This document shows, one piece after another, positions 2,400 through 60,240 of a stretch of 64,000 bases of DNA. The first letter of the stretch is position 1. Each line of letters begins with the position of its first letter. The notes beneath the pieces are model-generated. The model saw only the letters and a program-made list of their open reading frames with translations. It was not told the DNA's origin and made no database searches. This stretch comes from an uncultured bacterium (GTDB lineage Bacteria; Fermentibacterota; Fermentibacteria; Fermentibacterales; JCC-6), in the NCBI GenBank assembly GCA_964624405.1, contig CAZUXA010000010.1, forward strand, positions 5,263 to 69,262. The letters run 5' to 3'. Both the position numbers and the translations under genes were made by a program.

Positions 2400-2635
2400 G
2401 GGTTTCCTCGCTTGGTTTTCGGGGGGGTTTGACCCCGCCCTGGTTAGGGGGTAATATATGCCCATGGGGGCCATCGTCTGAGAGTGCGATTAGGTTACTG
2501 ATGAAGGCTTCGCCCCACCGTGTCGCTGGCGCCCCCCAGGGAAGCCTGGCAGACCGGTCGGCCGTGTAAGGCCTTTAACCCTTGCTTGCGAATCATTCGT
2601 CAGCCCTGGCCCCCTCCCATTACATCGGAGGGGTG

Positions 2636-3523
2636 ATGCGCCACAACGGAACAGAGAGGTCCCCTTCGGACCGGCTTGACATCTTCTGGCTGTTCATAAC
2701 CGGCGGTTACGCCGTTCTGATGTCGGCCATTCCATACATTCGCCTGGTTCCCAGGTTTCCCGTTCTGCTTCCCATCTGGGCGGTGTTCGCCCTTCTTTAC
2801 CGGTGGAACCGGCTTCCCCGCTGGAGCCCGATGCTGGTGAGCTTCGCCTTTCTGGGGCTGTGCTACTGGGCGCTTCGATTCACTGTTACAACATGGAGCG
2901 GCGTCTTCAACGGCATGAATGTGGCGGTATTCGAAGAGCGGATTTTCGGCGTTCTGCCTCCGGTATGGCTGCAGGAGAAAATGGGTTGCCCGGGCCATAC
3001 CCGGTGGTTCGACTACTTCTTCGCCGGGCTTCATGCATCGTTCTTTTTCATACCGCTGCTCACCCCGTTTCTGGCGTGGCGCAGAAACGGCGACGCCGGA
3101 ATGCGCCGTGCGGTTACCTCCTTCGCCCTGCTGACCACCATCGGCTATGCCACCTATGTGCTCTGGCCCCTCACGCCTCCCTGGATGCAGACACTGGAAG
3201 GCGGAGTTCCCCCAATCGACCGCTGCATGTTCCGGGCGCTCACCGATTTCATGCCAGGCTTCCTGGTGGGAAACTTCTCCATGAGCCCAAGGGCCGCCAT
3301 GCCCTCGCTTCACGCCGCGGTTCCCATGCTGATGACCCTGGTTCTCATCCGGGAGCTTGGATTCCGGCGAAGCTGGTGGACGCTTGTAATCCTCTCGGGA
3401 ATCAGTTTCGAGATTCTCTACGGCGGCGAGCACTACGCCACGGATGTGGTGGTGGGCTATCTATACGCTCTGGCGGCCTATCTTGCCGTGTTCCTTCCCA
3501 GGCGGTTCCATACCCGGGTTTAA
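2636..3523 (+). CDS. PAP2-superfamily membrane phosphatase/phosphotransferase (PAP2_3, AUR1-like)
   Basis: ORF 2582..3523 trimmed to the ATG at 2636, which is preceded by GGAGGGG. Polytopic. Carries PAP2 C2/C3 motifs PSLHAA and GGEHYATDVVVG. Confidence 0.7.
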   Translation: MRHNGTERSPSDRLDIFWLFITGGYAVLMSAIPYIRLVPRFPVLLPIWAVFALLYRWNRLPRWSPMLVSFAFLGLCYWALRFTVTTWSGVFNGMNVAVFEERIFGVLPPVWLQEKMGCPGHTRWFDYFFAGLHASFFFIPLLTPFLAWRRNGDAGMRRAVTSFALLTTIGYATYVLWPLTPPWMQTLEGGVPPIDRCMFRALTDFMPGFLVGNFSMSPRAAMPSLHAAVPMLMTLVLIRELGFRRSWWTLVILSGISFEILYGGEHYATDVVVGYLYALAAYLAVFLPRRFHTRV

Positions 3524-3569: not shown

Positions 3570-4385
3570 ATGCCAAGGGTTACCGTAAGAAGCCTTGCGG
3601 CCATGAAGGCCCGGCGCGAACCCATTGTTGCCCTCACCGCCTACGACTACCACACGGCCCGAATCGAAGCCGCCGCGGGTGTTCACTGTATTCTTGTGGG
3701 GGATTCGTTTCAAATGGCGGTTCTGGGTGAGGAAACCACCCTGGGCGCCTCCCTCGATGTTCTTCTTTCAGTGGCGGCAGCGGTGAAGAGGGGAGCCCCC
3801 GGGGTTCTGGTGGTGGGGGACATGCCCTTTGGAAGCTATCAGGAGTCCTGCTCGCAGGCGGTCAGGAACGCCGGAAGGTTCCTCTCGGAGGCGGGAATGG
3901 ACGCGGTGAAGCTTGAAGGGGGAAACCCCCGGATGGTTCGCAGGGTTCGGGCCATTGTGGATTCCGGCATACCCGTGATGGGCCATGCCGGCCTTCTTCC
4001 CCAGTCGGTGCGCCTTGACGGCGGCTACCGGGTGGTACGCCGGGAGAACCGGGACGAACTGCTGCGCCAGTGTGAAGCCCTGGTTGAAGCCGGGGTTTTC
4101 GCCCTGGTCATCGAGGGCGTGGATGAGGAGCTTGCCCGGGAGGTTTCGGAAACTGTGCCGGTTCCCGTGATAGGCATAGGGGCAGGGCGTTATGTCGATG
4201 GCCAGATACTTGTGGTCTCAGACATTCTGGGGCTTGACCCCGCCTTCAACCCCAGGTTTCTTCGAAAGTACGCGGATCTTAACGGCGTGATACTCCAGGC
4301 GGTGAAACAGTACTGTCTGGAGGTGGCCGAGGGGCGCTTTCCGGGGCCGGAGAACGCCTTCCGGGAAGAGGGGGGCGAAGCATGA
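3570..4385 (+). CDS. panB: 3-methyl-2-oxobutanoate hydroxymethyltransferase
   Basis: ORF 3444..4385 trimmed to MPRVTVRSLAAMKARREPIVALTAYDY. Motifs ILVGDS, VVGDMPFGSY, VKLEGG and GHAGLLPQS are collinear with PanB. Confidence 0.9.
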   Translation: MPRVTVRSLAAMKARREPIVALTAYDYHTARIEAAAGVHCILVGDSFQMAVLGEETTLGASLDVLLSVAAAVKRGAPGVLVVGDMPFGSYQESCSQAVRNAGRFLSEAGMDAVKLEGGNPRMVRRVRAIVDSGIPVMGHAGLLPQSVRLDGGYRVVRRENRDELLRQCEALVEAGVFALVIEGVDEELAREVSETVPVPVIGIGAGRYVDGQILVVSDILGLDPAFNPRFLRKYADLNGVILQAVKQYCLEVAEGRFPGPENAFREEGGEA

Positions 4386-5596
4386 AAATCCTGGTGGCCG
4401 GCGGAGGCGGAAGGGAACACGCACTGGCATGGGCGCTATGCAGGGACCATCCTCACCGGGTGCTGGTCTGCCCGGGCAACCCGGGTACAGCGGCCTTCGC
4501 GGAGAACATTCCCGGCGACCCCCTTCAGGTCGCCCTGGGCAACCGGGTAGACCTGGTGGTGGTGGGCCCCGAAGCGCCGCTGGCCGCCGGTCTGGGCGAC
4601 AGGCTTCGGGCCTCGGGAATTCCCTGCTTCGGCCCCGGGGCGGATTGCGCCAGACTTGAGAGCAGCAAGTGGTTCGCCAAGGAGGTGATGACCGCCGCCG
4701 GGGTTCCCACCGCCCGGGGCCGGGTGTTCGACCGGATCGAAGAGGCCTTTGCCCATATGGAGGGAAGGCCGATGAACTGGGTCATCAAGTCCGACGGCCT
4801 GGCCGCCGGCAAGGGAGTGATTCTCCCCACGGACATCACCGAGGCCCGAAACGGGCTGGAAAGCCTTTTTGCCATGCCGCCGGGCAGGGTGGTTGTAGAG
4901 GAAAGGCTTTCCGGGCCGGAAGTCAGCGTGATGGCGGTGTGCAGCGGAACGGAAGCGGTGATGCTTCCCCCCAGCCGGGACCACAAGCGGCTGGGCGACG
5001 GTGACACCGGTCCCAACACCGGAGGAATGGGCGCGGTCTGCCCTCCACCGGGGCTGGAAGCGGGTTTCATCGAAGATATGAGGCTCACCGTGTTCCAGCC
5101 GGTGCTCCTGGAACTCCGGCGCCGTGGACTGGACTACAGGGGAGTGTTGTACGCCGGGATGATACTCTCTCCTGACGGGCCCAGGGTGCTCGAGTTCAAT
5201 GTTCGCTTCGGCGACCCCGAAACCCAGTCGGTGCTTCCAATGCTCGCCGGCGACCTGGCCGAGCTTTGCATGGCCGCCGCTGTTGGTACAGGGTTGCGGG
5301 ACATCGAAACCCGGAAGGGAGCTTCCGCCACGGTGGTGCTGGCCTCGGCGGGATATCCCGGGGTGTATGGAAAGGGGGCCCCCATAACTGGTCTGGAGCG
5401 GGTGCGAGGCGCGCTGGTGTTCCATGCGGGAACAGCAATGGCCGGGGGGTTGCCGGTAACAGCCGGAGGCCGTGTTCTCGGGGTGACCGCCCTGGGAAGC
5501 AGCCTTGATGAAGCGGTTGCCAGGAGTTATGAAGCGGTATCCGAGATTGCCTTTGAGGGAATGTACTATCGAAGAGATATAGGGAGGAAGCCATGA
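4382..5596 (+). CDS. purD: Phosphoribosylamine--glycine ligase
   Basis: MKILVAGGGGREHALAWAL N-terminus, ATP-grasp core, EFNVRFGDPE. ATGA overlap with the panB stop. Confidence 0.93.
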   Translation: MKILVAGGGGREHALAWALCRDHPHRVLVCPGNPGTAAFAENIPGDPLQVALGNRVDLVVVGPEAPLAAGLGDRLRASGIPCFGPGADCARLESSKWFAKEVMTAAGVPTARGRVFDRIEEAFAHMEGRPMNWVIKSDGLAAGKGVILPTDITEARNGLESLFAMPPGRVVVEERLSGPEVSVMAVCSGTEAVMLPPSRDHKRLGDGDTGPNTGGMGAVCPPPGLEAGFIEDMRLTVFQPVLLELRRRGLDYRGVLYAGMILSPDGPRVLEFNVRFGDPETQSVLPMLAGDLAELCMAAAVGTGLRDIETRKGASATVVLASAGYPGVYGKGAPITGLERVRGALVFHAGTAMAGGLPVTAGGRVLGVTALGSSLDEAVARSYEAVSEIAFEGMYYRRDIGRKP

Positions 5597-6024
5597 ACAG
5601 CCTTGTGGGAATCGTTATGGGAAGCGAAAGCGACCGGGAAACCATGGAGAAAACCTGCGGGGTTCTGGACGAGTACGGTATTCTCTGGGAAATGAATGTC
5701 ATGAGCGCCCACCGGACTCCGGAGAAGGTGGCGGAGTACTCCCGGAACGCCGCGGACCGGGGGCTGAAGGTGATCATCGCCGCCGCGGGGCTTGCGGCCC
5801 ATCTGGCCGGGGCGGTTGCGGCCAACACGAAGCTTCCCGTCATTGGAGTTCCGGTGCAGGGTGGGCCGCTGAACGGTTTCGACGCCCTGCTGAGCACCGT
5901 GATGATGCCAAAGGGAGTTCCCGTGGCCACTGTGGCAATCGGGTCTCATGGCGCCGCCAACGCCGCACATCTCGCCGCGCGAATCATTGCACTCTTCGAC
6001 CGGGATGTTTCGGAAAGGTTGTGA
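5593..6024 (+). CDS. purE: 5-(carboxyamino)imidazole ribonucleotide mutase
   Basis: VGIVMGSESD, SAHRTP, IIAAAGLAAHLAG and PVIGVPV motifs. ATGA overlap with the purD stop. Confidence 0.93.
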   Translation: MNSLVGIVMGSESDRETMEKTCGVLDEYGILWEMNVMSAHRTPEKVAEYSRNAADRGLKVIIAAAGLAAHLAGAVAANTKLPVIGVPVQGGPLNGFDALLSTVMMPKGVPVATVAIGSHGAANAAHLAARIIALFDRDVSERL

Positions 6025-6028
6025 AAAA

Positions 6029-6619
6029 ATGTCTGCCAGAACAGTTGCCATCGACATAGAGAAGCCCTCTCCGGACGCTGTGAAAATGGCGGTGTCGGTT
6101 CTGACCGGAGGGGGGCTCACCATTTACCCCTCGGATACCGTCTACGGGGTTCTCTGCCCGGCGGCCATGCAGCACTCGGTAAGAAGAGTGGCAAGGCTGA
6201 AGGGGTACACCGAGGAAAGGCCTTTCATCCTTCTGGTTCCATCAATCGAGGACGCCCTGATTTACTCGAAGCCGGTCCCGGGAGCCTTGGAAGCCATGCA
6301 ATCCCACTGGCCCGGCCCGGTGACCCTGATCCTTCCCGCCTCGGACAGGGCGCCCTCGTGGGTCTGCGCTCCGGACGGGTCCGTTGCTCTCCGGGTTCCC
6401 TCAGACCCGCTTTCCATAAAGATACTCGAGTGGGTCATGCCCCTGTTGACCACCAGCGCCAACATCCGCGGGGGGATGGAGCCTTTGGGCCTGGACGAGG
6501 TAAGCCTGAAACTGGCTTCCGGGGTTGACCTGATGCTTGACGGGGGAAAGCTGGCAACCAGGAAAACCAGCACCATGATTCGTGTTACCGAGGAAGGCCT
6601 GGAAGTTATTCGTCCCTAA
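6029..6619 (+). CDS. tsaC: L-threonylcarbamoyladenylate synthase (YrdC/TsaC/Sua5 family)
   Basis: ORF 5948..6619 trimmed to the ATG at 6029 (MSARTVAID). Motifs YPSDTVYG, PGPVTLIL, ALRVPS and TSANIRGG. Confidence 0.85.
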   Translation: MSARTVAIDIEKPSPDAVKMAVSVLTGGGLTIYPSDTVYGVLCPAAMQHSVRRVARLKGYTEERPFILLVPSIEDALIYSKPVPGALEAMQSHWPGPVTLILPASDRAPSWVCAPDGSVALRVPSDPLSIKILEWVMPLLTTSANIRGGMEPLGLDEVSLKLASGVDLMLDGGKLATRKTSTMIRVTEEGLEVIRP

Positions 6620-8712
6620 GCGGTAAGGGCGGTCCATAACACCCTGAGAAGGCTTTTCGGGTGAAGCAGGATGTTGGAGTAGGCCTGGTTCGCCAGGGGA
6701 CAGGCGCATTCCTTCCTTCTGATCGATCTGCGGATCGCCGCCGCCTCCCGTGATTTCCAGATGTCCAGAAAATCCGATTGATCTCCCACGGAACCCATCT
6801 CGCCCCGGTACGCCAGTATGGCGCACGGCCAAACACCGCCGTCGGCGTTGATGTGAACATTGAGCAGGGCCGCGTAGCAGGGTATGACCTGGGTCCGGGT
6901 TCGAAGGTATTCGGTGACGATATCGTAATACACCAGCCTCAGCGCGGTGGTGATTCTGGAAAGGATGTTCATTCCCTTCATGCGGCTTCTCACCGCTCTC
7001 TTGAATACCTCCATGATTTCGCCGTAGCGTTCTCCTTCCGGGGTGATCCCGCTGCCGATGTTGAAGAACTCCTCTCTTTCCTCCGCGACTTCGTTGATGT
7101 AGGTGTCCACCCCCAGGGTTCCGGCGAACTCGATGATTTCCCCGAGCTTGTGAACATTGAAGCGGGAGATCACGGTTCCCACTCCAACATGAAGGTACCT
7201 GCTGGTTTCCCTTAGCTTCTTCAGCCGTTCCAGAGTGTCGATGAGTCTGTGGAAATTGCCGGGAACTCCCCGCAGAAGGTCGTGAGCCTCACCCACGCCG
7301 TCCATGCTGGGTTTGATGGTGAGAACCGTTCCCGGCGCTTCCTCGGCGATTATGCCCAGGATCTCCCGGGTCATGGTTTCAACCCGCTCCGGCGCCAGGG
7401 CATTGGTTGGAATGTGGATCACCGCGGGACGAAGGTGCCTGCAGGCAAGCCTGATGATTTCCGGAAGATCCTGCCTGAGAAAGGGTTCACCACCGGATAC
7501 ATTGAAGAAGTAGGTCCAGCCCACGGAGCGGAACAGGGATTCGATCATCGGCAGGGAAAGCTCGTCCTTCCGGTTTTGGTGGTGCTTCCAGATGAAGCAT
7601 GTGCTGCACCGGGACTGGCAGTTCCGGGTGACGGAGAATGTGACATTGATGGGCTTGGGAGCCCCGGCAAGACCCAGCCTGGCCCACCACGCCCGGGCAA
7701 CGCTGAGGGAGAGGTGAAAGAGCTGGCTTCCGTGGTTCATCTGGACGGGGAAATGCCTGTAAAGAGCCTGATGCACAACGGCGGAAAGGGCGTAAGCGCT
7801 CTCCACCGCCATGAGCAGAAGCCTCTGGCCCAGGGCGATGGCGGTGGCCACCACCATGCCTCCCGGAACGAAACTTGCAACCATCAGCGCCTGCACCGAC
7901 TCCCTCACCCCGAGTCCCCCGGGAATGAACACCATCAGAAGAGAAGCGAGCCAGGCCGCGGGACCGGAGAGAACGCAGAGTATCACCATGGCGTGTGCCG
8001 GGGAGGATTCAGGCACCCCGAAGCCCCGGAACCAGAAGTAAAGCCCCAATCCCCGCAGGGACCAGGACAGAATGTGGCTGCCGATGAACTGCGCCTGATG
8101 CCTGTGGCTGATGTGGGGAAGCTCGTCTACGCTGGTGCCCAGCCTGTGGGCGAACTTTCTGGCGAAAAGCCTTTGAATCCCCGGCGCCATCAGCATGAGA
8201 ACCCCCAGCCCCCCGGAGATCCAGAGGGCGGCGGTAAGCGCCGGTGGAAGCAGCGAAGTGTTTACGAACGGCAGGGATAACAGCGTAAGAAGACCAAGGG
8301 CAGCAAGAAGATATATGTTTTCGAGCACCATGGCGCTGGCCGCCTTGACCGAGCCCGCGCCGTTTCGGTTCAGGAACGCTATTCTGCCCAGCACCATCCA
8401 CACCCGCCCGGGGATGTAGCTGCCCATCTGGGTCAGGAACCAGTTCCGTCGAAGCTGGCCCCGGTCTATTCTGGGAGTTTTCAGGGCGTGAATGATTCTC
8501 TGCCATGCAAGGGGGGCGAAGTAGTAGCCCGCCGCGAGAAAGAGAACGGAAAGCACCAGGTAGAACCAGTCCGCCCTGCCGCCGGCTTCCTCCCAGAAAG
8601 CCGTGAGGCGGGGTTTCCAAACCGGGTAGAGGCTCAATCTGAAATAGACCGCCGCTCCCAGCAGAAGAAGCGGCCCCAGCCATGCTTCCGCTTTCTTCAG
8701 AAGGGGTTTCAC
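6616..8712 (-). CDS. Fusion protein: N-terminal flippase-like (LPG_synthase_TM/UPF0104) membrane domain + C-terminal radical SAM domain with SPASM/twitch-like Cys cluster
   Basis: ORF 6616..9213 trimmed. Codons upstream of 8712 overlap the YfhO gene and look non-protein-like. The GTG at 8710-8712 overlaps the YfhO stop (GTGA). The N-terminal ~325 aa are polytopic with YIPGRVW and PGGLGVRE. The C-terminal part has CQSRCSTC (CX3CX2C, 7597-7620), VSGGEPFL, and a distal cluster IPCY...GGVWPCA...ECACP. Confidence 0.8.
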   Translation of the reverse strand: MKPLLKKAEAWLGPLLLLGAAVYFRLSLYPVWKPRLTAFWEEAGGRADWFYLVLSVLFLAAGYYFAPLAWQRIIHALKTPRIDRGQLRRNWFLTQMGSYIPGRVWMVLGRIAFLNRNGAGSVKAASAMVLENIYLLAALGLLTLLSLPFVNTSLLPPALTAALWISGGLGVLMLMAPGIQRLFARKFAHRLGTSVDELPHISHRHQAQFIGSHILSWSLRGLGLYFWFRGFGVPESSPAHAMVILCVLSGPAAWLASLLMVFIPGGLGVRESVQALMVASFVPGGMVVATAIALGQRLLLMAVESAYALSAVVHQALYRHFPVQMNHGSQLFHLSLSVARAWWARLGLAGAPKPINVTFSVTRNCQSRCSTCFIWKHHQNRKDELSLPMIESLFRSVGWTYFFNVSGGEPFLRQDLPEIIRLACRHLRPAVIHIPTNALAPERVETMTREILGIIAEEAPGTVLTIKPSMDGVGEAHDLLRGVPGNFHRLIDTLERLKKLRETSRYLHVGVGTVISRFNVHKLGEIIEFAGTLGVDTYINEVAEEREEFFNIGSGITPEGERYGEIMEVFKRAVRSRMKGMNILSRITTALRLVYYDIVTEYLRTRTQVIPCYAALLNVHINADGGVWPCAILAYRGEMGSVGDQSDFLDIWKSREAAAIRRSIRRKECACPLANQAYSNILLHPKSLLRVLWTALTA

Positions 8713-10970
8713 GGGATTCTTCGCTTTTTGCCGGGAATCAGAAGCAGTGCCAGCGCCAGCAGCACCGCTGCAATCGAAACCCGCAACCCCAGCGTCACAT
8801 CGGAGGTGTCGTAGTGGAACCGCACGGTGTTGTCGCCCGGAGGAAGGATCACCGCCCTCATCCATCCGTTTGCCAGATGGATGTCCGCCGGCAAGCCGTT
8901 GACATCTGCCCTCCAGCTGGGATACCAGGAATCCGCCAGAACCAGCACGGAAGCGGTAGCGGACCCGGTTCGAACCACAACCTCGGTGGGGTTGTCCAGA
9001 GTTATCTCCGCGGTGCCGGAGCAGGCCGGCGGAACGGTTTCCAGCGGGGAGTCTATGATGGAAACGGTCATGGGATTCAAACCCCGGGCCAGAGCCTGAA
9101 ACCCCTGCTCGCCGGTGCCGCTTACGGGCTGGGCCGGGATGAACGCCCTGGGCATGGGGTTGATCGGGAGGTCTGGGGTTCCTTCCGAAAGCGCGGGATG
9201 AATGTCCCTCCATGAAAAAGTGCCCTCGGGCAGCCGGAAGGCGCTGATACCGAATGAGTACAGCACTTCCGGCGTGGCGCTTCCGAGAAGAGGGGCCATT
9301 CTGTCGGTTATCGCAGGCTTCGCGGCATGGTAGCCGGTGACGGAGCGGACACCCAGGGGAACCAGTTCGTTGCCCCCGGGAAACACCCTTCCCGGGCCGG
9401 CGGTCTCGACCAGATTCCGGTCAGGCGGGAACATGCTGTCCAGTGATGTGTGATGGAGATAGACCTGAAAGCTTCTGTTGAAGGGGATCAACTCGAGGGC
9501 GGTTATCGCCGTCACCGCCAGAGCGGCGTGAATGGCCCGGAGGTTGTGTTTCCACGCCAGGAACAGCGCAAGCAGAACCCCGGAGGAAGACAGAAGGGCT
9601 CTGAACAGATCCTTCTCCAGAAGCGAAACCCGGTGGCGGACCATGAATTCGAATCCGGCGCCGCCGGGCACACCCATCCTGGTCCACCATGAAGATTGAA
9701 GGGCTCTGCCGAGGGGTTCGGCGGATATCAGCATGAGCAGAAACAGCGCCACCGGCGCCCCGAAGGTTAGTACCATCCTTTTCGACGGCTTCCCGCGGAA
9801 CAGAACATCAAAACCGGGGCCTGAGGCTAACGCCACCGATGTCGCGGTGATGAAAGCCGCCATGTGGGGAGCCCTTATCTTTCTGAAAACGGGTATGACA
9901 TCGTAGAGTATTCTGAACAGAGGAGTGTAGCCCCCCCATGAGACCACCGCGCCCAGAACCGCAAGGGACAGCAGCGCTCCCCGGACTTTTTTGTCTTTTC
10001 CCGAAGCGAACCCCGCCAGTGCCAGCAGGAACACCGCCACGCCGGTAAACTCACTGCTGAGCCGAAGCCCCAGCCTGCCGAAATACACCGGAACTCCCGA
10101 GATTGAGCTGTCCGGGAAGCCGTGCCTGAGGCCGAAGGCGGAGGGGAGGATCATTGCGAAGGTTTCCTCCGGGGGCATGGAGTAGCTGGCGGCGGTGGCG
10201 GGATCCAGCCCGTCACCCCTGGTGGAATGCCGGCTGAAGAGGTATCCGGGGTAGAGCTGAACCGCGGATACCGCCACTCCCAGGGCCATTATGGCCCCCA
10301 AGCCGGAGATCTTCCACCACCATTGCCGGATAGAGCCCAGGTGCCAGAGGGCGAAGACCGATGCCGCCACCCCGGAGTAAAGCAGCATCTGTGGATGGCT
10401 GGAGAGCCCCTGCATTCCCACCGCCAGCCCGCCGACTCCAAGCCATTTTGCCCGGCGGGTCTGGTTGAACCGGTTCACTCCGTAGAGAAGCAGGGGAAGA
10501 AACGCCCAACTGATGACCTTGCTGCCGTGACCGGCGTAGAACAGCGTGTTGGCCCACGCTCCCAGGGCGTAGGCAGTTGCCCCGACAAGCCTTCCTCCTC
10601 TGGAGACCCCGATGGAACCCATGAAGAGCCAGGTGAAGAAGCCCGCCAGGAAAAGGTGCGCGGGAAAGAGGAAACGGATCGCCGCCTCTGAACCGAAGAG
10701 AATCATGGGAAGACCCCGGAGGGGGTAGAAGACCGGAGCGCTGAAGGATGCGTAGAAGGGAACGCCGCAGTAAATGTAGGGGTTCCAGTGGGGAAGCTGG
10801 CCCTGTCTCAGGGAAGCCTCGATGAAGGAGAAGAACGGATATCCCTGGTGGATTGTGTCGCTCATTTCACCACCGGGAAGCCGGAGCGATGTGAATATCG
10901 GCCAGTAGACCAGCACCGAAAGAAGCGTTACAAAGCCCAGAATTGCCGCGGTTTCACTGGGTTTCTTCAT
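8709..10970 (-). CDS. YfhO-family GT-C-type membrane glycosyltransferase
   Basis: 753-aa ORF. N-terminus DTIHQGYPFFSF...LPHWNPYIYCGVPFYASF. Many hydrophobic helices, then a soluble C-terminal region and a terminal TM helix (IAAVLLALALLLIP). The ATG at 10970 overlaps the upstream gene by 17 nt. Confidence 0.75.
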   Translation of the reverse strand: MKKPSETAAILGFVTLLSVLVYWPIFTSLRLPGGEMSDTIHQGYPFFSFIEASLRQGQLPHWNPYIYCGVPFYASFSAPVFYPLRGLPMILFGSEAAIRFLFPAHLFLAGFFTWLFMGSIGVSRGGRLVGATAYALGAWANTLFYAGHGSKVISWAFLPLLLYGVNRFNQTRRAKWLGVGGLAVGMQGLSSHPQMLLYSGVAASVFALWHLGSIRQWWWKISGLGAIMALGVAVSAVQLYPGYLFSRHSTRGDGLDPATAASYSMPPEETFAMILPSAFGLRHGFPDSSISGVPVYFGRLGLRLSSEFTGVAVFLLALAGFASGKDKKVRGALLSLAVLGAVVSWGGYTPLFRILYDVIPVFRKIRAPHMAAFITATSVALASGPGFDVLFRGKPSKRMVLTFGAPVALFLLMLISAEPLGRALQSSWWTRMGVPGGAGFEFMVRHRVSLLEKDLFRALLSSSGVLLALFLAWKHNLRAIHAALAVTAITALELIPFNRSFQVYLHHTSLDSMFPPDRNLVETAGPGRVFPGGNELVPLGVRSVTGYHAAKPAITDRMAPLLGSATPEVLYSFGISAFRLPEGTFSWRDIHPALSEGTPDLPINPMPRAFIPAQPVSGTGEQGFQALARGLNPMTVSIIDSPLETVPPACSGTAEITLDNPTEVVVRTGSATASVLVLADSWYPSWRADVNGLPADIHLANGWMRAVILPPGDNTVRFHYDTSDVTLGLRVSIAAVLLALALLLIPGKKRRIP

Positions 10971-11877
10971 GGTTCACTTCCTTCCCGGCTCTCTTCAGGG
11001 TTCCGGCGGTAACCATGGCAAGGGCTATCTCCCATATTGTCATGATTATGCGCTGCCCTCCCGCGGCGGCCACCGCCGGGGCGAGAAACTCGACGGGCAA
11101 CGCAATCAGCGCCGCGGCAGCTTCCCTGACTCCCAGCCCGCCGGGCACCAGAACCACAATATACGCCGCCAGCCAGGAAAGGGGCGCTGCGGCAAGGCAT
11201 CTCATCAGCCCCGCCTCGTTGAGGCCCATACCCCGGAACCAGGCCCAGAGGGCCACACCCCTGATGATCCATGTGGCAGTGTAGAAAAGCGTCACCTTCG
11301 CGGAATGCTTCAGCGGAACCGGTTTGAAGGTGATCCCCCTGGCCCGGAACACCATCCTCTGCAGGGGGTTCAGCAGCGGCAGAAGGGCCACCGCGACACC
11401 AGCCGCGGTGACAGACCATCGGATGGCGGGGCTGGAGGTGATGCCCGGGTGAAAAACGCTTACGCCGAAGGCCACTATTCCCACCGCGGCGGTGCTGAAG
11501 AGCAGTTCCAGCATCAGGGTCGAAGCGGCCCTGGCCATGGTGTAGCCCCTTGCCTTCAGAAGGGCAACCCTCCCCGCGAAAAGCCAGACCTTGCCCGGTA
11601 TGAAACGCCCGAGCTGACTGCTGAACCAGACCGCGTACAGCTCCCTTCGCCCCAGGGTGACTCCCCTTTGCCTGCAGACCATTACCCACCCCTCAGGTGA
11701 CAGGGCAAGGCCGACAAGAAGCACCAGCGACGAAATGATCAGAAGCGGCGGATTGAGTTCCCAGGGGAACTCCCGGGCGCTTTCAAGCCATTCCCCGCCC
11801 TTCAGCCAGACATGGCGTCCCACCAGAAGAAGAAGAAGCAGAAAAGCAATCCTTATCCAGAATACCGGCTTTTTCAA
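10954..11877 (-). CDS. Flippase-like membrane protein (LPG_synthase_TM/UPF0104 family)
   Basis: 307-aa polytopic ORF with FIPGKVW and VPGGLGVRE motifs. The TTG start at 11877 overlaps the epimerase stop (TTGA). Confidence 0.75.
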   Translation of the reverse strand: MKKPVFWIRIAFLLLLLLVGRHVWLKGGEWLESAREFPWELNPPLLIISSLVLLVGLALSPEGWVMVCRQRGVTLGRRELYAVWFSSQLGRFIPGKVWLFAGRVALLKARGYTMARAASTLMLELLFSTAAVGIVAFGVSVFHPGITSSPAIRWSVTAAGVAVALLPLLNPLQRMVFRARGITFKPVPLKHSAKVTLFYTATWIIRGVALWAWFRGMGLNEAGLMRCLAAAPLSWLAAYIVVLVPGGLGVREAAAALIALPVEFLAPAVAAAGGQRIIMTIWEIALAMVTAGTLKRAGKEVNHEETQ

Positions 11878-12758
11878 AGCAGCCCCTTTCCGCGGTACCA
11901 GGAGACCGCCTCTTCAGCCGCCTCGCGGAAGGGATGGCGGGCGGTGAAACCGGCTCCGGCGGCCTTCTTCACGGAAACGAACCTGTCGGTTCCGAAGAGG
12001 CGCAGCCGGCTTCCGGACAGCGGTTTCGGGCAAAGGGGCCCAAGGGAAAGGGCCGCCCTGAAAAGACAGCGGGGTACCGGGAGCACGAACACTCCTCTTT
12101 CCATGGCCGCCGCCACGGTTTTCGCCACATGTTTCATGGATAGAACCTGAGGCCCTCCGATGTTGAAGACTCCCCCTGCGAGAATCCCTCCCGGTAGGGC
12201 GGCGGCCACACCCCGGCATACATCCCGGATGTGGGTTGGTCTGGTTCTTCCGCCTTCCCTGCCCACCACCGGAAACCAGCCCCGGGCCACCTGCCGAAAG
12301 AGGGCGAGCTTGTGCCGGTCTCCGGCTCCGAATACGAAGTCGGGCCGGAGTATGGTCAGCCTGTCAGCGGGAAGGCCCAGAACCTGAAGCCGGTGCTCGC
12401 CCTGGGCCTTGGTCTGCTCGTACACGCCCCCGGGATTCGGGGGTGAATCTTCCCTGCCGTCGGGCAGAAGCCCGCACACACCCGGAGTGCTGATGTGAAT
12501 CATTGAAATGCGGTGGTCAAGACACTGTCTTCCGAGAAGTTCCGGAAGAAGCGCGTTTGCCTCCAGCACTGCTTCCGCTGAAACTCCCGGTGCCGCCAGC
12601 CTTCCCGCGGCGTTGACAACCGCGTCAGCGTCTTCCGGGACGGTAACCGCCCCCCCGGATCTTCCAGGGTGCGAAACCACCAGGTGGCCCAGCCCGGTCA
12701 GGTGATCCTGAACGGCTTTGCCTATGAATCCTCCGGTTCCGGTGACGAAAACCCTCAT
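11874..12758 (-). CDS. NAD-dependent epimerase/dehydratase (extended SDR)
   Basis: ORF 11874..12920 trimmed to MRVFVTGTGGFIGKAV (ATG at 12758, ATGA overlap with the GT4 stop). Rossmann GTGGFIG and catalytic YEQTK. Confidence 0.8.
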   Translation of the reverse strand: MRVFVTGTGGFIGKAVQDHLTGLGHLVVSHPGRSGGAVTVPEDADAVVNAAGRLAAPGVSAEAVLEANALLPELLGRQCLDHRISMIHISTPGVCGLLPDGREDSPPNPGGVYEQTKAQGEHRLQVLGLPADRLTILRPDFVFGAGDRHKLALFRQVARGWFPVVGREGGRTRPTHIRDVCRGVAAALPGGILAGGVFNIGGPQVLSMKHVAKTVAAAMERGVFVLPVPRCLFRAALSLGPLCPKPLSGSRLRLFGTDRFVSVKKAAGAGFTARHPFREAAEEAVSWYRGKGLL

Positions 12759-13849
12759 TGAAGCCCTTCCAGCAAACTCCCGGCATACAGCTCCCATGAA
12801 AACCTTGCTGCGTGGCGGGCCACCCTCTCGCTCAGGCCGGGGTTCGACAGCAGCGAACCGCAACGGATGACGGCGTCCGCCAGGGATTCCGGATCGGGAA
12901 CGGCGACCTCGCCGGTGCAACCGGGTTTCACGGTTTCCGCCAGACCTCCCACATCAGTGACCACCATTGGCTTCCGGAAAGCAAGGGCTATCTGCGCGAC
13001 TCCGCTCTGGGTGGCGGTAACATACGGAAGAACCACGATGTCCGCGGCCTGGAAGTACAGGCCCACCCTGGAGTCGGGAACGAACTCCCTGTGCCGGATG
13101 AATCGGTTTCCCAGCGGAGCGCTGAGAGCTTCGAGTTCGTCCTCCCGACCGTAGTTCTCACCCACCGCCAGTAGAACATGGTTCTCCGGAAGTGATTCCA
13201 TCGCCTTTATCAGCAGATCAAGCCCCTTGTACTTCCTGACCAGCCCGAAGAAAAGAAGAACCACCCGATCTTCGTCCAAGCCCAGCATTTCCCGGGCTTC
13301 AGCCCTGGATGAAGCCCCGGGCCGGTACTGGTCGTAAATGGGGTGGAAGAGGTCGACCACCTTTTTCCCCCACCTTCGGGCTCTCTCCCCGTCATCCTTT
13401 CCATGGACAACGATGATTTGCGCTCTTTTCTCCATGAACCGACGGGTGAGGATTCCGGACAGGGGAAACCCTTCATGGGGTGTCAGATTGTGGCAGACCG
13501 CCGCGGTCGGAAGCCCGTCGGGCAGTGAGGCCGAAAGGCAGGGGGCGAAAAAGGGGTGCCACCATTGAACAACTGCGGCGTCGCATTTCAGCGATGAAAC
13601 CGCCCGTTTCGTCGCTGGCCAGGACAGAAACGCGGTTGGATGGAGAAGACGAAGGCTTTCAGGGGCAGATGGCGCACCCGGGGGCTCATACTGGGTTTTT
13701 CCGGGAAAGAGCAGCCCGGGGTAGAGGGTGCGGAAGTTGACCCGGCGCACACTGTGACCGCCCCTTTCGAAGGTTTCCGCAAGCCGGCTGTTGAACTGGG
13801 CTATTCCCCCCCGGAAAGGTGGAAACGGACCCAGAAGGCAGATCTTCAT
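12755..13849 (-). CDS. Glycosyltransferase family 4 (GT-B fold)
   Basis: MKICLLGPFPPFRGGIAQF N-terminus. C-terminal sugar-donor motif SGVAQIALAFRKPMVVTDVGGLAETV. ATGA overlap with the GT2 stop. Confidence 0.8.
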   Translation of the reverse strand: MKICLLGPFPPFRGGIAQFNSRLAETFERGGHSVRRVNFRTLYPGLLFPGKTQYEPPGAPSAPESLRLLHPTAFLSWPATKRAVSSLKCDAAVVQWWHPFFAPCLSASLPDGLPTAAVCHNLTPHEGFPLSGILTRRFMEKRAQIIVVHGKDDGERARRWGKKVVDLFHPIYDQYRPGASSRAEAREMLGLDEDRVVLLFFGLVRKYKGLDLLIKAMESLPENHVLLAVGENYGREDELEALSAPLGNRFIRHREFVPDSRVGLYFQAADIVVLPYVTATQSGVAQIALAFRKPMVVTDVGGLAETVKPGCTGEVAVPDPESLADAVIRCGSLLSNPGLSERVARHAARFSWELYAGSLLEGLQ

Positions 13850-14802
13850 TCAGTTCTTTCGACGGGGTTCGCCGGCCTGTTGACGCTGAAACGGAGGATC
13901 ATCTCGCCCAGAAGGCCCATGGATATGAACTGGAACCCGGCCAGCATCAGGAGCACCCCGAAAAGGAGCAGGGGCCTGTTGCCTATGGCGTCTCCGGAAA
14001 ACCACAGGAAAGACAGGTAGGCGTTGATGGCGAAACCCGACAGGGTGAGTATTGTGCCGATCCCTCCGAAGAAATGCAGGGGGCGAAAGGAGTAACGGTT
14101 GAGAAACAGAACGGTAAGCAGATCGCTGTAGCCCCGGAAATATCTGGCCCATCCGTATTTGCTTTTTCCGTAGAGCCTGGGCCGGTGGTTCACCGGAACC
14201 TCGCCGACCCTGAAACCGTTCATGGCCGCCAGCACTGGAGTGTACCTGTGCATCTCACCGTAGAGGTCAAGGGTTGTCGCGGCGTCTTTTCTGTACACCT
14301 TCAGGCCGCAGTTGAAATCGTGAAGGTTGATACCGGTGGCCCGCCTAACCACGGAGTTGAAAAAACGCGAGGGAACCGTTTTGTCCGCCGGATCTCTTCT
14401 CACCTTTTTCCAACCGCTGACCAGGTGGTAGCCGTTCTCCTGGGCGTAGGCCACCATTCCCGGTATCTCTCCCGGGTCATCCTGCAGGTCGGCGTCGAGG
14501 GTTACCAGCCAGTCCCCCCGGGCTTCCCGGATACCCGCCGCCAGAGCCGCCGCCTTGCCCTGATTTTTGCCGAACCGCAGCCCAGTGAGTGGGTATTGGG
14601 CTGCAAGGCTTACGATCGTGTTCCAGGTTTGGTCGGTACTGCCGTCGTCTACGATGATCGCGTCCCACCTGAAGCCCCGGAGGGCTTCGCTTATCTCAAG
14701 CATCAGCTCCCGCAGGCTCAGTTCCTCGTTCAGTGCCGGTATCACCAGTGTCAGGGCTGCTTCAGCCTTCAAAACGCTCAAGCGATGGTATCCCTTCTTC
14801 AA
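13846..14802 (-). CDS. Polyprenyl-phosphate glycosyltransferase, GT2 (GtrB/ArnC/DPM1-like)
   Basis: LVIPALNEE, IIVDDGSTD and LDADLQDDP motifs, plus a C-terminal TM pair (FFGGIGTILTLSGFAI, LLFGVLLMLAGFQFISMG). The start is uncertain: TTG at 14802, or an in-frame TTG at 14772 that shortens the overlap with lpxH to 11 nt. Confidence 0.8.
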   Translation of the reverse strand: MKKGYHRLSVLKAEAALTLVIPALNEELSLRELMLEISEALRGFRWDAIIVDDGSTDQTWNTIVSLAAQYPLTGLRFGKNQGKAAALAAGIREARGDWLVTLDADLQDDPGEIPGMVAYAQENGYHLVSGWKKVRRDPADKTVPSRFFNSVVRRATGINLHDFNCGLKVYRKDAATTLDLYGEMHRYTPVLAAMNGFRVGEVPVNHRPRLYGKSKYGWARYFRGYSDLLTVLFLNRYSFRPLHFFGGIGTILTLSGFAINAYLSFLWFSGDAIGNRPLLLFGVLLMLAGFQFISMGLLGEMILRFSVNRPANPVERTE

Positions 14803-15481
14803 CTTTCAAGTATGTGAATGAGCTTATCCAGTCGCCAAGCGAAACATGAACACCGCCGGGCATGGAAGCCACCCTGGGAACATGGGTGTGCCCTGTGACC
14901 ACCAGGTCCGCGGTTTGAAGCTGCTTCCCGGCCCAGGCCTCCAGATGCGCCGGAATGGTGCGAACCTGTTTCCGAAGGATTTTCCGGCTGGTGTCGCTGA
15001 AGAGCATCGCGAACCATGTGGCGGTGGTGGGATGCAGCAGGGAGAACAGCCGGCGCGAAACCCGGGCCTTCAGAATCGGTTTCAGGGCCCTGTAGCCCCA
15101 ATCCCCGGGACCGAGGCCGTCGCCGTGGGCGAGAACCGCGGCGAGGCCGTCGAAACTGGCCCTGAACGGGGTTTCGCGGTGTATCTGAAACCCCGTTTCC
15201 CGGCAAAACAGCCGGCCCACCCACCAGTCGTGGTTGCCGGGAATGAAGTGCATGGTCCATCCTGATTCGGACAGCCGTCGGAACCCGTGAAGTACGGTTC
15301 CGTACCCGCCGGGACAAACCCCCCGGTATTCGAACCAGTAATCGAAGAGATCACCCAGAAGCCAGAGGTTCATTGGCTTCCTGTCCGCCAGGTTCACCAG
15401 GAAGCGAAGAAGAGTTGCCCTTCCCGGGTGTTCATCCCATTCCGGGAACAGGTGGGCATCGCTTAGGAGGATGTGGGTCAT
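14762..15481 (-). CDS. lpxH: UDP-2,3-diacylglucosamine diphosphatase
   Basis: ORF 14762..15511 trimmed to MTHILLSDAHL (ATG at 15481, ATGA overlap with the upstream stop). Metallophosphoesterase motifs SDAHL, LGDLFDYW, GNHDWW and GHTH are collinear with E. coli LpxH. Confidence 0.75.
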   Translation of the reverse strand: MTHILLSDAHLFPEWDEHPGRATLLRFLVNLADRKPMNLWLLGDLFDYWFEYRGVCPGGYGTVLHGFRRLSESGWTMHFIPGNHDWWVGRLFCRETGFQIHRETPFRASFDGLAAVLAHGDGLGPGDWGYRALKPILKARVSRRLFSLLHPTTATWFAMLFSDTSRKILRKQVRTIPAHLEAWAGKQLQTADLVVTGHTHVPRVASMPGGVHVSLGDWISSFTYLKVEEGIPSLERFEG

Positions 15482-15972
15482 CGGGAGTCCCGGAGAACCC
15501 TCTGGGCGCACCCCATGCCGGTTGCTCGGAAAACCGTACCCCCGGGCAGAACCAGAACCGCCAGGGGAAGCATTTCCACATCCATGAAAGCCAGAAGGCT
15601 GTCGTCGCCAAGGTAGACCGCCAGGGGCAGGCCAAGCCTGTTCATCCGGCGCTGGGCCGCGTTTCTGGTGACGGGGTCGAACTGAACCGGAACGGGCAGC
15701 ACGGCTTCACCGGCCAAAGCCGCCATGAACAACAGATCCGGGTCGTTATGGTCGCAGTTTTCCAGAGGAATCCAGAGGTAGAGCAGAATACCCTGAAGGG
15801 CTTCGGTTTCCAGGGGGATGAAGCCTGCGGAATCGGGCCGATGCAGCGTGCCGGGAAGCTCCAGAACCGGGTCGGGTTCGGCTTCGGTGACAACCTGGTG
15901 ATCAGGCTCTCCGCATCCGGAGAGGGACAGGACAATCCCGGCGGGCAGCAGAAGGCGCCGGAGGATTCTCAA
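15478..15972 (-). CDS. Lipoprotein with thioredoxin-like (TlpA-like) fold pattern but no CXXC
   Basis: Part of ORF 15478..16230. TTG at 15970-15972 overlaps the upstream stop (TTGA), with GGAGAA upstream. Lipobox LSLSGC. LLYLWIPLENCDHN occupies the position where redoxins carry WxxWCxxC. Confidence 0.55.
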   Translation of the reverse strand: MRILRRLLLPAGIVLSLSGCGEPDHQVVTEAEPDPVLELPGTLHRPDSAGFIPLETEALQGILLYLWIPLENCDHNDPDLLFMAALAGEAVLPVPVQFDPVTRNAAQRRMNRLGLPLAVYLGDDSLLAFMDVEMLPLAVLVLPGGTVFRATGMGCAQRVLRDSR

Positions 15973-16223
15973 GGGTTTTCTCCGGGGATCACGGTGAATG
16001 ACTCGTGGCCCGCAAAGTAGGCAGAACCCGAAACAGTGACGAGCAGGGTGTCGGTTCCGGTGACCAGAAGGCTTTCCGGGGCCAGAAAGTGCCTGCCGGG
16101 GCCAAGAACAACTGCCAGAGCCTCTATCTCGCTTTGGGAGTCGATGGTGGACGCCGGCGCGGAAAACAGCAGGGGCATAACGCAACAGATGGCCGCTGAC
16201 GAGAGGAGAATCACCTTTTTCAC
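15969..16223 (-). CDS. Small secreted protein (signal peptide), first gene of the operon
   Basis: 84-aa ORF with a GTG start and GGAGG 10 nt upstream. N-terminus MKKVILLSSAAICCVMPLLFSAPAS looks like a Sec signal peptide. Confidence 0.5.
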   Translation of the reverse strand: MKKVILLSSAAICCVMPLLFSAPASTIDSQSEIEALAVVLGPGRHFLAPESLLVTGTDTLLVTVSGSAYFAGHESFTVIPGENP

Positions 16224-16366
16224 CGTTCAAAAACCTCCGCGTACGGGTGCAGCCATGTGTTCATCCCGGGAAAACTATGAATCCCGGCTCCATTCCGCAA
16301 TAGCGCACGACTTGATTCCCGGCGGGCCGATGAATAGCTTTGATACCTCCCTGGAAAAGGAATGCC

Positions 16367-37764: not shown

Positions 37765-37848
37765 CCGCAGTTAAGGAGCCGGCCGCAAGGAATTGCATGA
37801 GTTGTTGAGAATACATTGAGGCGAACCAAAGGAAACGGAGTAACTCGA

Positions 37849-38793: not shown

Positions 38794-38799
38794 GGCGAT

Positions 38800-60238: not shown

Positions 60239-60240
60239 GA

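Follow-up and report, generated by a model that had tools for sequence, protein, structure and literature searches.

A nine-gene operon of Fermentibacterota predicted to encode a transmembrane glycosylation pathway with a radical SAM enzyme

Results

Nine overlapping genes on the minus strand

We analysed a stretch of 64,000 nucleotides (64 kb) from an uncultured bacterium of the Fermentibacterota (GenBank assembly GCA_964624405.1, contig CAZUXA010000010.1, positions 5,263 to 69,262 of the forward strand), which is called the window throughout. Between positions 6616 and 16223 its minus strand carries nine uninterrupted open reading frames (ORFs), g1 to g9, all of them open over their full coordinates. 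This putative operon, the subject of the present study, is predicted to encode a small protein with a signal or anchor segment (g1), a lipoprotein (g2), an LpxH-family enzyme (g3), a membrane glycosyltransferase of family 2 (GT2; g4), a glycosyltransferase of family 4 (GT4; g5), a short-chain dehydrogenase/reductase (SDR; g6), a candidate flippase (g7), a glycosyltransferase of the GT-C fold (g8) and a second flippase-like domain that is fused to a radical S-adenosylmethionine (SAM) enzyme (g9).

Our reading of the ORFs and their junctions bore out the nine co-directional, overlapping genes that an initial annotation of this DNA had described. From g1 to g9, starts and stops overlap by 4, 4, 11-41, 4, 4, 4, 17 and 4 nt. 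The corresponding junctions are TTGA 15969-15972, ATGA 15478-15481, the g3/g4 overlap 14762-14802, ATGA 13846-13849, ATGA 12755-12758, TTGA 11874-11877, the 17-nt overlap 10954-10970 and GTGA 8709-8712. The start codon of g4 is uncertain: its overlap with g3 amounts to 41, 20 or 11 nt for a TTG start at 14802, 14781 or 14772, respectively, and an alternative GTG at 14745 would truncate the protein into the first strand of the GT2 domain. Overlaps of 4 nt are common elsewhere in the window (4382-4385, 5593-5596, 28911-28914, 34452-34455 and 47081-47084) and are usual for this compact genome, so that the coupling of the nine genes represents typical operon packing and is not a peculiarity of the cluster. 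Terminator-like sites showed no excess within the run from g1 to g9 (9 found vs 11.9 expected).

The glycosyltransferases g4 and g8 and the flippase-like domains

The gene g4 (13846-14802, minus strand) encodes an ArnC/GtrB-type GT2, predicted to act as a polyprenyl-phosphate sugar synthase. The protein matches PF00535 above the Pfam cut-off (E 3e-30). Among solved structures, its residues 17-306 come closest to ArnC (E 1e-44), ahead of GtrB (3e-25) and DPMS. It reached 169 bits with the ArnC model NF007986, under the equivalog cut-off of 529, and 108 bits with the PgfS model. Two C-terminal transmembrane (TM) helices were located at residues 248-266 and 278-296, and on these sequence features g4 qualifies as a membrane GT2 of the GtrB/ArnC/CsbB type. 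Enzymes of the ArnC/GtrB type transfer a sugar from a nucleotide donor to polyprenyl phosphate at the cytoplasmic face of the membrane. Membership of ArnC or ArnT themselves was considered and rejected, as the scores are far below the cut-offs and none of the Arn partners (ArnA, ArnB, ArnD, ArnT) is encoded in the operon.

For g8 (8709-10970, minus strand) the YfhO profile PF09586 gave only 14.5 bits (E 0.011) over the C-terminal 60 residues, which does not reach the Pfam cut-off of 28.5. The same profile is matched at E below 0.01 by 15 of 38 g8 orthologues (best 1.7e-8), and precomputed Pfam annotation lists it for many of them. A direct sequence search against solved structures returned no match for g8, so a fold search was needed. 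We built an AlphaFold2 model on the 38 orthologues (pLDDT 83.5, pTM 0.86), and its top matches in the PDB by Foldseek were solely GT-C enzymes, namely AftD, PglB, ArnT, EmbC, STT3, AftA and Pmt. In the model, helices extend as far as about residue 495; a beta-rich domain then occupies about 500-720, and the last helix spans 723-744. This layout resembles that of YfhO, which has a TM core, a beta-rich extracytoplasmic domain and a final TM helix. Residue D38, placed in the first extracytoplasmic loop, is invariant in the 38 orthologues. By its predicted fold g8 is clearly a GT-C glycosyltransferase with predicted catalysis, and by sequence it is a distant relative of YfhO and not a clear member of PF09586. 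GT-C enzymes of the YfhO lineage use lipid-linked donors at the outer face of the cytoplasmic membrane.

The flippase position appears to be taken by two domains of PF03706 (LPG_synthase_TM / UPF0104 / "PplT"; PplT in the following), and genes for GtrA, MATE or Wzx proteins are absent from the operon. The product of g7 (10954-11877, minus strand) is a stand-alone polytopic membrane protein of this family, and thus the candidate flippase; it reaches 45.6 bits (cut-off 33.4), with positions 5-296 of the 302 in the model covered, and has at least six hydrophobic segments. The second domain makes up the N-terminal half of g9 (residues 1-345; 7678-8712, minus strand). It scores 60 bits over model positions 29-289 and is paralogous to g7 (30% identity, E 5e-30). 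At a distance of about 44 kb there is a third PplT gene (60145-61221, plus strand; E 1e-10), which follows a gene for an HflX-like GTPase and is about 29% identical to both g7 and the N-terminal half of g9; the window thus holds three PplT domains.

The radical SAM enzyme g9

As a whole, g9 (6616-8712, minus strand) encodes a PplT::radical SAM fusion, the model of which is helical as far as residue 345. Its C-terminal half (residues 354-698; 6616-7653, minus strand) comprises a radical SAM domain and a twitch-like auxiliary cluster. Both PF04055 (43.7 bits) and PF13186 (SPASM, 31.6 bits) are matched above the Pfam cut-offs. The CX3CX2C motif (C365/C369/C372) and the cysteines C612/C630/C669/C671 are invariant in 32 sequences. 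Since the auxiliary cysteines number only four, they fit one twitch-like cluster and not a full SPASM domain. The fold neighbours found by Foldseek were DesII, SkfB, BlsE, CteB, SuiB, anSME, PqqE and viperin, and the identity to twitch/SPASM sugar enzymes is only 13-18%.

When compared with named radical SAM equivalogs (Tes/GDGT-MAS, AhbD, NirJ, PqqE, MftC, sactipeptide maturases and others), both g9 and its stand-alone orthologues, described below, stayed far below the cut-offs; the best score of g9 was 63.9 bits for TIGR03961, the cut-off of which is 306 bits. A role as a tetraether/Tes-type lipid coupler was rejected, with 46 bits vs a cut-off of 450 and with glycosyltransferases, not lipid-synthesis genes, as genomic partners. 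The C-terminal catalytic domain of MprF is cytoplasmic and follows the flippase domain, which agrees with a cytoplasmic location of the radical SAM domain behind PplT in g9.

The soluble enzymes g5 and g6 and the head of the operon

The GT4 encoded by g5 (12755-13849, minus strand) is a glycosyltransferase of the GT-B fold with matches to Glyco_trans_1_4 and Glycos_transf_1 above the Pfam cut-offs and has no membrane segment. It is weakly similar to MshA, to N-acetylglucosamine-phosphatidylglycerol (GlcNAc-PG) synthase and to WaaG; with the model of GlcNAc-PG synthase (GpgS) it scored 48 bits vs a cut-off of 480. The product of g6 (11874-12758, minus strand) is an extended SDR, predicted to be a keto-sugar reductase or epimerase. 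It matches PF01370 and PF04321 above the Pfam cut-offs, and its translation contains TGTGGFIG (TGxxGxxG) and YEQTK (YxxxK). Its best solved relatives, all of them weak, are NDUFA9-like membrane-peripheral SDRs and sugar epimerases/dehydratases.

The first enzyme gene, g3 (14762-15481, minus strand), encodes a calcineurin-like metallophosphoesterase of the LpxH family. It is probably, judged by its alignments, a UDP-2,3-diacylglucosamine diphosphatase. Its scores with NF003743 (83.7 bits) and TIGR01854 (81.5 bits) lie below the equivalog cut-offs of 134 and 190, respectively. Its alignment to solved LpxH structures (E about 1e-14) spans the whole protein; residues 4-227 correspond to 4-228 of 8s7f, with the lid insertion included. 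The metal-binding motifs D8/H10, GD44, GNHD, H119 and GHTH are invariant in 23 sequences, and the GNRD motif of LpxH reads GNHD across the g3 clade, including outgroups that are annotated as LpxH. Annotation pipelines label the Fermentibacterota orthologues of g3 as LpxH, and a single orthologous group is visible in the phylum. The nearest homologues outside it (38-43% identity, e.g. in Ca. Edwardsbacteria) are solitary genes beside enolase and divIC, outside glycosylation clusters. No other lpx or waa gene was found in the 64-kb window. Most likely g3 is the ordinary LpxH of the phylum, co-transcribed with the cluster and not defining its chemistry; the simplest reading is that it became the first enzyme gene of the operon in the Fermentibacterota.

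The predicted lipoprotein g2 (15478-15972, minus strand; 164 aa) has an LSGC lipobox and the sequence MRILRRLLLPAGIVLSLSGC. It had no Pfam, NCBIfam, PDB or paralogue match, and it is kept at the head of the cluster throughout the phylum at 30-65% identity. The 84-aa protein g1 (15969-16223, minus strand) has an N-terminal hydrophobic signal or anchor, its single hydrophobic segment (residues 4-22), and gave no Pfam, NCBIfam, PDB or paralogue match. It is the least conserved member, with homologues confined to the closest relatives (L009-L015).

Most domain assignments of the initial annotation stood, namely those of the GT2, the GT4, the SDR, the two flippase-like domains and the radical SAM enzyme. 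For YfhO the sequence match is sub-threshold and the GT-C assignment comes from the fold; for LpxH the scores are below the equivalog cut-offs. An analogy of the cluster with hopanoid-type genes (HpnA/B/L/H/J) was rejected, as HpnA and HpnB scored 25-27 bits vs cut-offs above 360 and no cyclase gene was found in the window.

Conservation within the Fermentibacterota

A scan with the radical SAM domain over one genome per GTDB species yielded 270 related loci, and the results reported here rest on the best 80. Orthologues of g8, g9 and g3 occur almost exclusively in Candidatus Fermentibacterota (Hyd24-12; Fermentibacteraceae, Sabulitectum, Aegiribacteria). We found the order g2-g9 kept in 34 of the 38 species-representative loci of this phylum that have at least 8.5 kb of upstream flank. 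The orthologues are thus not scattered in relatives, which the initial annotation had named as a finding that would refute its reading. The flanks, with nrdJ on one side and Sua5-purE-purD-panB-PAP2 on the other, are equally syntenic in the phylum.

The cluster of a deep-branching lineage of the Fermentibacterales (JAFGKQ010000141.1) has the same genes, with an unfused radical SAM protein of 381 aa following the GT-C gene (L007, 7987-9132), and this lineage has one PplT only. The fusion in g9, which had been read as a flippase::radical SAM protein, is real, but this lineage shows it to be a later event within the phylum.

In at least 29 loci of Aegiribacteria, Sabulitectum and others, the cluster is immediately preceded, on its own strand, by genes for an extracytoplasmic function (ECF) sigma factor and a zf-HC2 anti-sigma factor (2446-3683 in L002; also in L016-L066, at about positions 200-1500 of each locus). 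A 141-aa protein often accompanies this pair. The window and its nearest relatives (L009-L015) are without the pair and have g1 there instead; between g1 and the 141-aa protein that holds the same position in Aegiribacteria, no relationship was detectable. The pair, which heads the cluster in most of the phylum, points to control by envelope stress.

Rearrangements of the cluster are rare. One Aegiribacteria locus (L031, DAOWFD010000182.1) has g6-g9 intact, g2-g5 not upstream and a g5-like gene on the opposite strand; in another (L028) about 2 kb are inserted between g4 and g5. Both rearrangements suggest that g6-g9 can act as a sub-module. In one relative (L001, the same as L014; contig_7224 of MFD03899.bin.2.31) the GT2 gene at 5171-6125 matches g4 in two frames, and the product of the gene caller (203 aa) has no Pfam match. 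This gene is apparently frameshifted, either by an assembly error or as a pseudogene.

The radical SAM family outside the phylum

Outside the Fermentibacterota the radical SAM orthologues are stand-alone proteins of about 385 aa with 48-55% identity. They occur in DPANN archaea, in Christensenellaceae and other Clostridia, in Pyramidobacter (Synergistota), in Planctomycetota, in Myxococcota/Bradymonadia and in deltaproteobacterial metagenome-assembled genomes. Their context was examined in 22 loci. A g4-like GT2 (45-50% identity) adjoins the radical SAM gene in nine of these, and a g5-like GT4 (27-40% identity) is present in 16. Recurrent neighbours are SDR epimerase-family genes, Methyltransf_11 genes and, in six loci, a MOP/Wzx-type flippase; further ones encode a polysaccharide pyruvyltransferase, a gPRT-HAD ribofuranosyltransferase and UDP-glucose dehydrogenase. 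Unfused PF03706 genes directly precede the radical SAM gene and overlap its start in Clostridia (L075) and Pyramidobacter (L081), and one more PF03706 gene was found in L076. The same position of the cassette is hence occupied by a MOP/Wzx protein in some loci and by PplT in others. The archaeal loci carry GT-C enzymes of the PMT_2 and STT3 (AglB) types. Homologues of g3 (LpxH) or g8 were found in none of the 22 loci. A search of the large membrane proteins beside radical SAM orthologues elsewhere gave no match to the YfhO profile, and Pfam identified PMT_2/STT3 in the archaeal loci only.

The family is large. When 1.84 billion cluster representatives were searched with a profile, 1,705 of them matched at E <= 1e-30. 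At least 150 radical SAM clusters at the 50% identity level, from bacteria as well as DPANN archaea, score above 216 bits. In distant members the enzyme is fused to a GT2 (four representatives), to a GT4-type domain or to a PTPS_related membrane domain. The last of these, which we take to be a member of the GT-C clan, is probably GT-C-related. By gene order and gene fusions, the family is thus tied independently to every other enzyme type of the operon except LpxH. Among the distant relatives we also observed a protein with a C-terminal FAD-binding reductase domain (P0369) and one with an intein (Intein_splicing/HINT) inserted in the enzyme (P0477).

Operon boundaries and other genes of the window

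Upstream of the operon, 143 bp (16224-16366) separate g1 from a divergent gene for an nrdJ-type class II ribonucleotide reductase with an ATG near 16367. This intergenic region is the presumed promoter region. The gap agrees with the initial annotation, which placed GGAGG 10 nt upstream of the g1 GTG; we located it 9 nt 5' of this codon. A sigma-70-like promoter was not detected in the upstream region, and a search for riboswitches, sRNAs, tRNAs, promoters and terminators in and around the operon found none. At the other end, a Sua5/YciO-family gene (5948-6619, plus strand) converges on g9 and ends in a 4-nt overlap with its stop (6616-6619), which leaves no space for an intergenic terminator there.

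On this side, next to panB, purD, purE and Sua5 and syntenic across the phylum, lies a PAP2_3 gene (2582-3523, plus strand). The substrates of PAP2 enzymes are lipid phosphates, among them undecaprenyl pyrophosphate and lipid A, and a link of this gene to the operon is possible.

A block at 36358-47084 encodes a TolC-like OEP (36358-37764), an Omp85/TamA-like protein (40146-41927), a TamB-like protein of 1259 aa (41905-45684) and a Wzi-like protein (45681-47084, minus strand). These genes are direct evidence of a diderm envelope. The phylum has been described from genomes as diderm with lipopolysaccharide (LPS) (PMC5030696), in support of the diderm host assumed by the initial annotation.

Three bifunctional ORFs of the window are also recorded here. 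A single ORF at 27649-28914 (plus strand) joins a guanylate kinase domain (residues 7-181) to a DFP/CoaB-type domain (212-389), apparently an unusual fusion. In the ORF 38800-40155 (minus strand) a phosphomethylpyrimidine kinase is fused to a NUDIX domain, and the ORF 33340-34455 (plus strand) encodes the known IspD-IspF fusion.

Discussion

Overall, our data tip slightly in favour of the view that the operon encodes a multi-component transmembrane glycosylation pathway in which a sugar is tailored by a radical SAM enzyme, as far as this can be read from the genes. The succession of GT2, flippase-like protein and GT-C enzyme, on which the initial annotation had built, is upheld by the ArnC alignment of g4, the fold of g8 and the PF03706 domains. 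In such a pathway, g4 would load a sugar onto polyprenyl phosphate. The radical SAM domain of g9, tethered to the membrane via PplT, would abstract hydrogen from this lipid-linked sugar, or alternatively from the lipid-linked glycoside product of g5, and yield a keto-sugar, either by dehydrogenation as in BtrN and DesII or by diol dehydration as in AprD4. The SDR g6 may then reduce the keto-sugar to an epimerised or deoxygenated sugar. Together, g9 and g6 would be the equivalent of DprE1/DprE2 that needs no oxygen, or would resemble the AprD4/AprD3 pair. The PplT domains would replace a GtrA, Wzx or MATE flippase and bring the product, possibly also a lipid acceptor, to the periplasmic leaflet. 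Finally, g8 would transfer the sugar to an acceptor in the envelope, for which LPS/lipid A, envelope proteins and a glycolipid are all possible. The taxa that carry the radical SAM enzyme are mostly anaerobes, and this distribution would fit an oxygen-independent substitute for a flavin oxidase.

Several points weigh against this pathway. The support for the function of the operon is wholly genomic, and the type of reaction proposed for g9 is a guess. The best sequence match of its radical SAM domain among solved structures is GDGT-MAS (7tol, E 3e-5), and the peptide-modifying maturases SkfB, CteB, SuiB and PqqE are also among its fold neighbours. To our knowledge, flipping by PF03706 proteins has been shown or proposed only for phospholipid-type lipids and never for a polyprenyl-phosphate sugar. 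A g6-like SDR stands beside the radical SAM gene in only about 10 of 25 loci elsewhere, and the classical three-component scheme leaves the role of the GT4 unexplained. Moreover, because the unrelated flanks are just as syntenic, the gene order within the phylum is weak evidence of a functional linkage.

A wider claim, which we regard as doubtful, would be that enzymes of the g9 type form a widespread membrane-associated radical SAM class that acts on polyprenyl-phosphate sugars and, together with an SDR, serves as an oxygen-independent epimerase or deoxygenase, an anaerobic counterpart of DprE1/DprE2. In the Fermentibacterota, the phospholipid-flippase domains of PF03706 would then have been recruited to flip polyprenyl-phosphate sugars and so to feed a YfhO-type GT-C enzyme, which decorates LPS or another outer-envelope molecule.

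The initial annotation had suggested a periplasmic modification of lipid A/LPS that is coupled to lipid A synthesis via LpxH, with g8 decorating lipid A or the core in the manner of the Arn or Rgt pathways. It agrees with this proposal that the LpxH-family gene g3 heads the cluster in almost every member of the Fermentibacterota, that g4 is nearer to ArnC than to GtrB, that the host is a diderm with outer membrane biogenesis genes in the window and with LPS reported for its phylum, and that the conserved neighbourhood includes the PAP2_3 phosphatase gene. However, the coupling to lipid A has been weakened, since it depends on g3 and the outgroup homologues of g3 are solitary, housekeeping-type genes. 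None of the 22 outside loci combines an LpxH homologue with the orthologous radical SAM/GT2/GT4 module, and these loci include archaea and monoderms without lipid A. The presence of the core without LpxH in archaea and in monoderm Clostridia argues for a chemistry that is not specific to lipid A. In addition, the GT-C enzyme belongs to the YfhO lineage and not to ArnT/PMT_2, and the window lacks any further lpx or waa gene. We therefore consider a dedicated lipid A pathway rather improbable. The periplasmic O-glycosylation of proteins, with g8 acting on secreted proteins, lipoproteins or outer membrane proteins like the streptococcal PgtC2/PgfM1, is less probable still. YfhO-family GT-C enzymes have been shown to glycosylate Ser/Thr-rich regions of extracytoplasmic proteins, and the Pgf operon has the same make-up of GT2, SDR epimerase and YfhO-type enzyme (PMC12041528), in line with the 108 bits of g4 against PgfS. 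Exported proteins are encoded at the head of the operon by g1 and g2, and archaeal relatives of the cluster contain STT3/AglB and PMT_2. Against this, g1 and g2 have no Ser/Thr-rich disordered tract, no acceptor candidate is evident, and g8 resembles characterised YfhO proteins only very distantly.

A slightly smaller probability again is given to the synthesis and export of a membrane glycolipid. In this case g5 would glycosylate a phospholipid or diacylglycerol, as GpgS does, the SDR and the radical SAM enzyme would alter its head group or tails, PplT would flip the product, and the GT2/GT-C pair would extend it on the outer leaflet. A precedent exists in gpgSDF, an operon of a GT4 and a UPF0104 flippase which makes glucosaminyl-phosphatidylglycerol (GlcN-PG) (PMC12713373). 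PF03706 domains are known from phospholipid translocation, the best solved match of the radical SAM domain is a lipid-modifying enzyme, and two PplT domains would suit two lipids that have to be flipped. The similarity of g5 to the GlcNAc-PG synthase model, although detectable, is far below the cut-off. Furthermore, the flippase outside the phylum is usually of the Wzx/MOP type, which is typical of polyprenyl-linked glycans, and the deep-branching lineage manages with a single PplT. Finally, the genes might share no function at all and merely form an operon of unrelated housekeeping genes in a compact genome, adjoined by chance by a radical SAM enzyme that matures a ribosomally synthesised and post-translationally modified peptide or makes a cofactor. 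The general use of 4-nt overlaps, the equally syntenic flanks and the frequent occurrence of SPASM/twitch enzymes as peptide maturases would all be compatible with such an accident. We regard it as extremely improbable, because the radical SAM gene is repeatedly linked, in archaea and in phyla far apart, to genes for GT2, GT4, flippases and GT-C enzymes and is directly fused to GT2, GT4, PplT and a GT-C-like domain. A conserved small ORF for a precursor peptide was not seen beside the radical SAM gene.

Extracytoplasmic glycosylation by GT2, flippase and GT-C shapes surface antigens, phage receptors and stress resistance, and few tailoring enzymes are known in such systems. A large radical SAM family that is wired by gene order and fusion to all four types of partner (GT2, GT4, flippase and GT-C) across anaerobic bacteria and archaea offers a testable candidate for oxygen-independent chemistry on lipid-linked sugars. 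The cluster also hints at a possible second job for the MprF-type PplT domain, the flipping of sugars on a carrier lipid; the function of this domain outside MprF is largely unknown. It would extend the YfhO lineage into diderm bacteria and gives a handle on the envelope of the Fermentibacterota, which are uncultivated yet abundant in anaerobic digesters. Should the operon prove to be a generic surface-glycan cassette with an accessory enzyme, its main value would be a better annotation of the approximately 1,700 related radical SAM clusters.

Comparison with known systems

Multi-component transmembrane glycosylation systems have been described before, as has the sigma-factor control of csbB/yfhO in Bacillus subtilis (PMC8035078). 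The operon resembles CsbB-GtcA-YfhO and GtrA-GtrB-GtrC in its clustering of a membrane GT2, a small polytopic candidate flippase and a GT-C enzyme of the YfhO lineage. As in CsbB-GtcA-YfhO, a stress sigma factor seems to be involved, here represented by the ECF pair upstream in most Fermentibacterota. In contrast to both systems, the host belongs to a diderm candidate phylum, the flippase candidate is a PF03706/PplT protein and not GtrA, and the operon adds a GT4, an SDR, a radical SAM enzyme and an LpxH-family gene. Teichoic acids, a further difference from CsbB-GtcA-YfhO, are not expected here, and the similarity of g8 to YfhO is sub-threshold.

The Pgf system of Streptococcus mutans (PgfS-PgfM1-PgfE-PgfM2) and GtrB-PgtC2 of S. 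pyogenes (PMC12041528) likewise combine a GT2, an SDR epimerase and a YfhO-type GT-C enzyme in one operon. Pgf is without a radical SAM enzyme, a PF03706 protein and a GT4, its epimerase acts on a UDP-sugar, and its acceptors are proteins, which here are one possibility among several. The YfhO-family members PgtC2 and PgfM1 are protein O-glycosyltransferases (PMC12041528), and LPS is therefore only one of several possible acceptors for g8. With the Arn pathway (ArnC-ArnD-ArnE/F-ArnT) the operon shares the diderm host and a GT2 that is closest to ArnC among solved structures. In Arn, ArnD acts on the lipid-linked sugar at the membrane prior to flipping, which parallels the role proposed for g9. 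Equivalents of ArnA, ArnB, ArnD, ArnE and ArnF are, however, absent from the operon, the GT-C enzyme is not ArnT/PMT_2-like, and g4 remains well under the ArnC equivalog cut-off (169 vs 529 bits).

In three-component systems for pentofuranoses, an SDR epimerase fixes the identity of the sugar, and in mycobacteria DprE1/DprE2 are at work (PMC11127046). Common to these systems and the operon are the lipid-linked donor, the flippase, the GT-C enzyme and the auxiliary SDR epimerase. The oxidase DprE1 and the SDR reductase DprE2 may serve as a model for a two-enzyme epimerisation of a polyprenyl-phosphate sugar through a keto-intermediate. Here, in contrast, the donor synthase is a GT2 and does not depend on phosphoribosyl pyrophosphate, the proposed oxidant is a radical SAM enzyme and not a flavoenzyme, and the flippase candidate is PplT and not MATE.

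Like GpgSDF and MprF/PplT, the operon encodes PF03706 proteins together with, or fused to, the maker of their presumed cargo lipid, and a GT4 is part of it (PMC12713373; bioRxiv 10.1101/2022.03.11.483950). It differs in having two PplT domains per operon, with a third gene 44 kb off, and in the presence of a GT2/GT-C pair. In a survey of PplT proteins, a radical SAM fusion is not among the common architectures listed, and most prokaryotes carry one PplT gene (bioRxiv 10.1101/2022.03.11.483950).

Our search of the literature for radical SAM enzymes combined with YfhO, GtrB, GT-C or polyprenyl found no relevant paper. The radical SAM sugar enzymes DesII, BlsE and BtrN are chemical models for g9, and AprD4/AprD3 is a pair of a radical SAM enzyme and an SDR that passes through a keto-sugar. 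DesII, BlsE, BtrN and AprD4 have, like g9, a CX3CX2C motif and one auxiliary cluster, and DesII and BlsE are among the top fold matches. Unlike the enzyme proposed here, they act on soluble nucleotide sugars or aminoglycosides, and none of them has a membrane tether or belongs to a GT-C cassette. The scheme of the operon is thus known, and the set of its parts is new: a diderm candidate phylum has a GT-C enzyme of the YfhO lineage, PplT stands in the position of the flippase, a conserved twitch-type radical SAM enzyme is present and in most Fermentibacterota fused to PplT, and an LpxH-family gene heads the operon.

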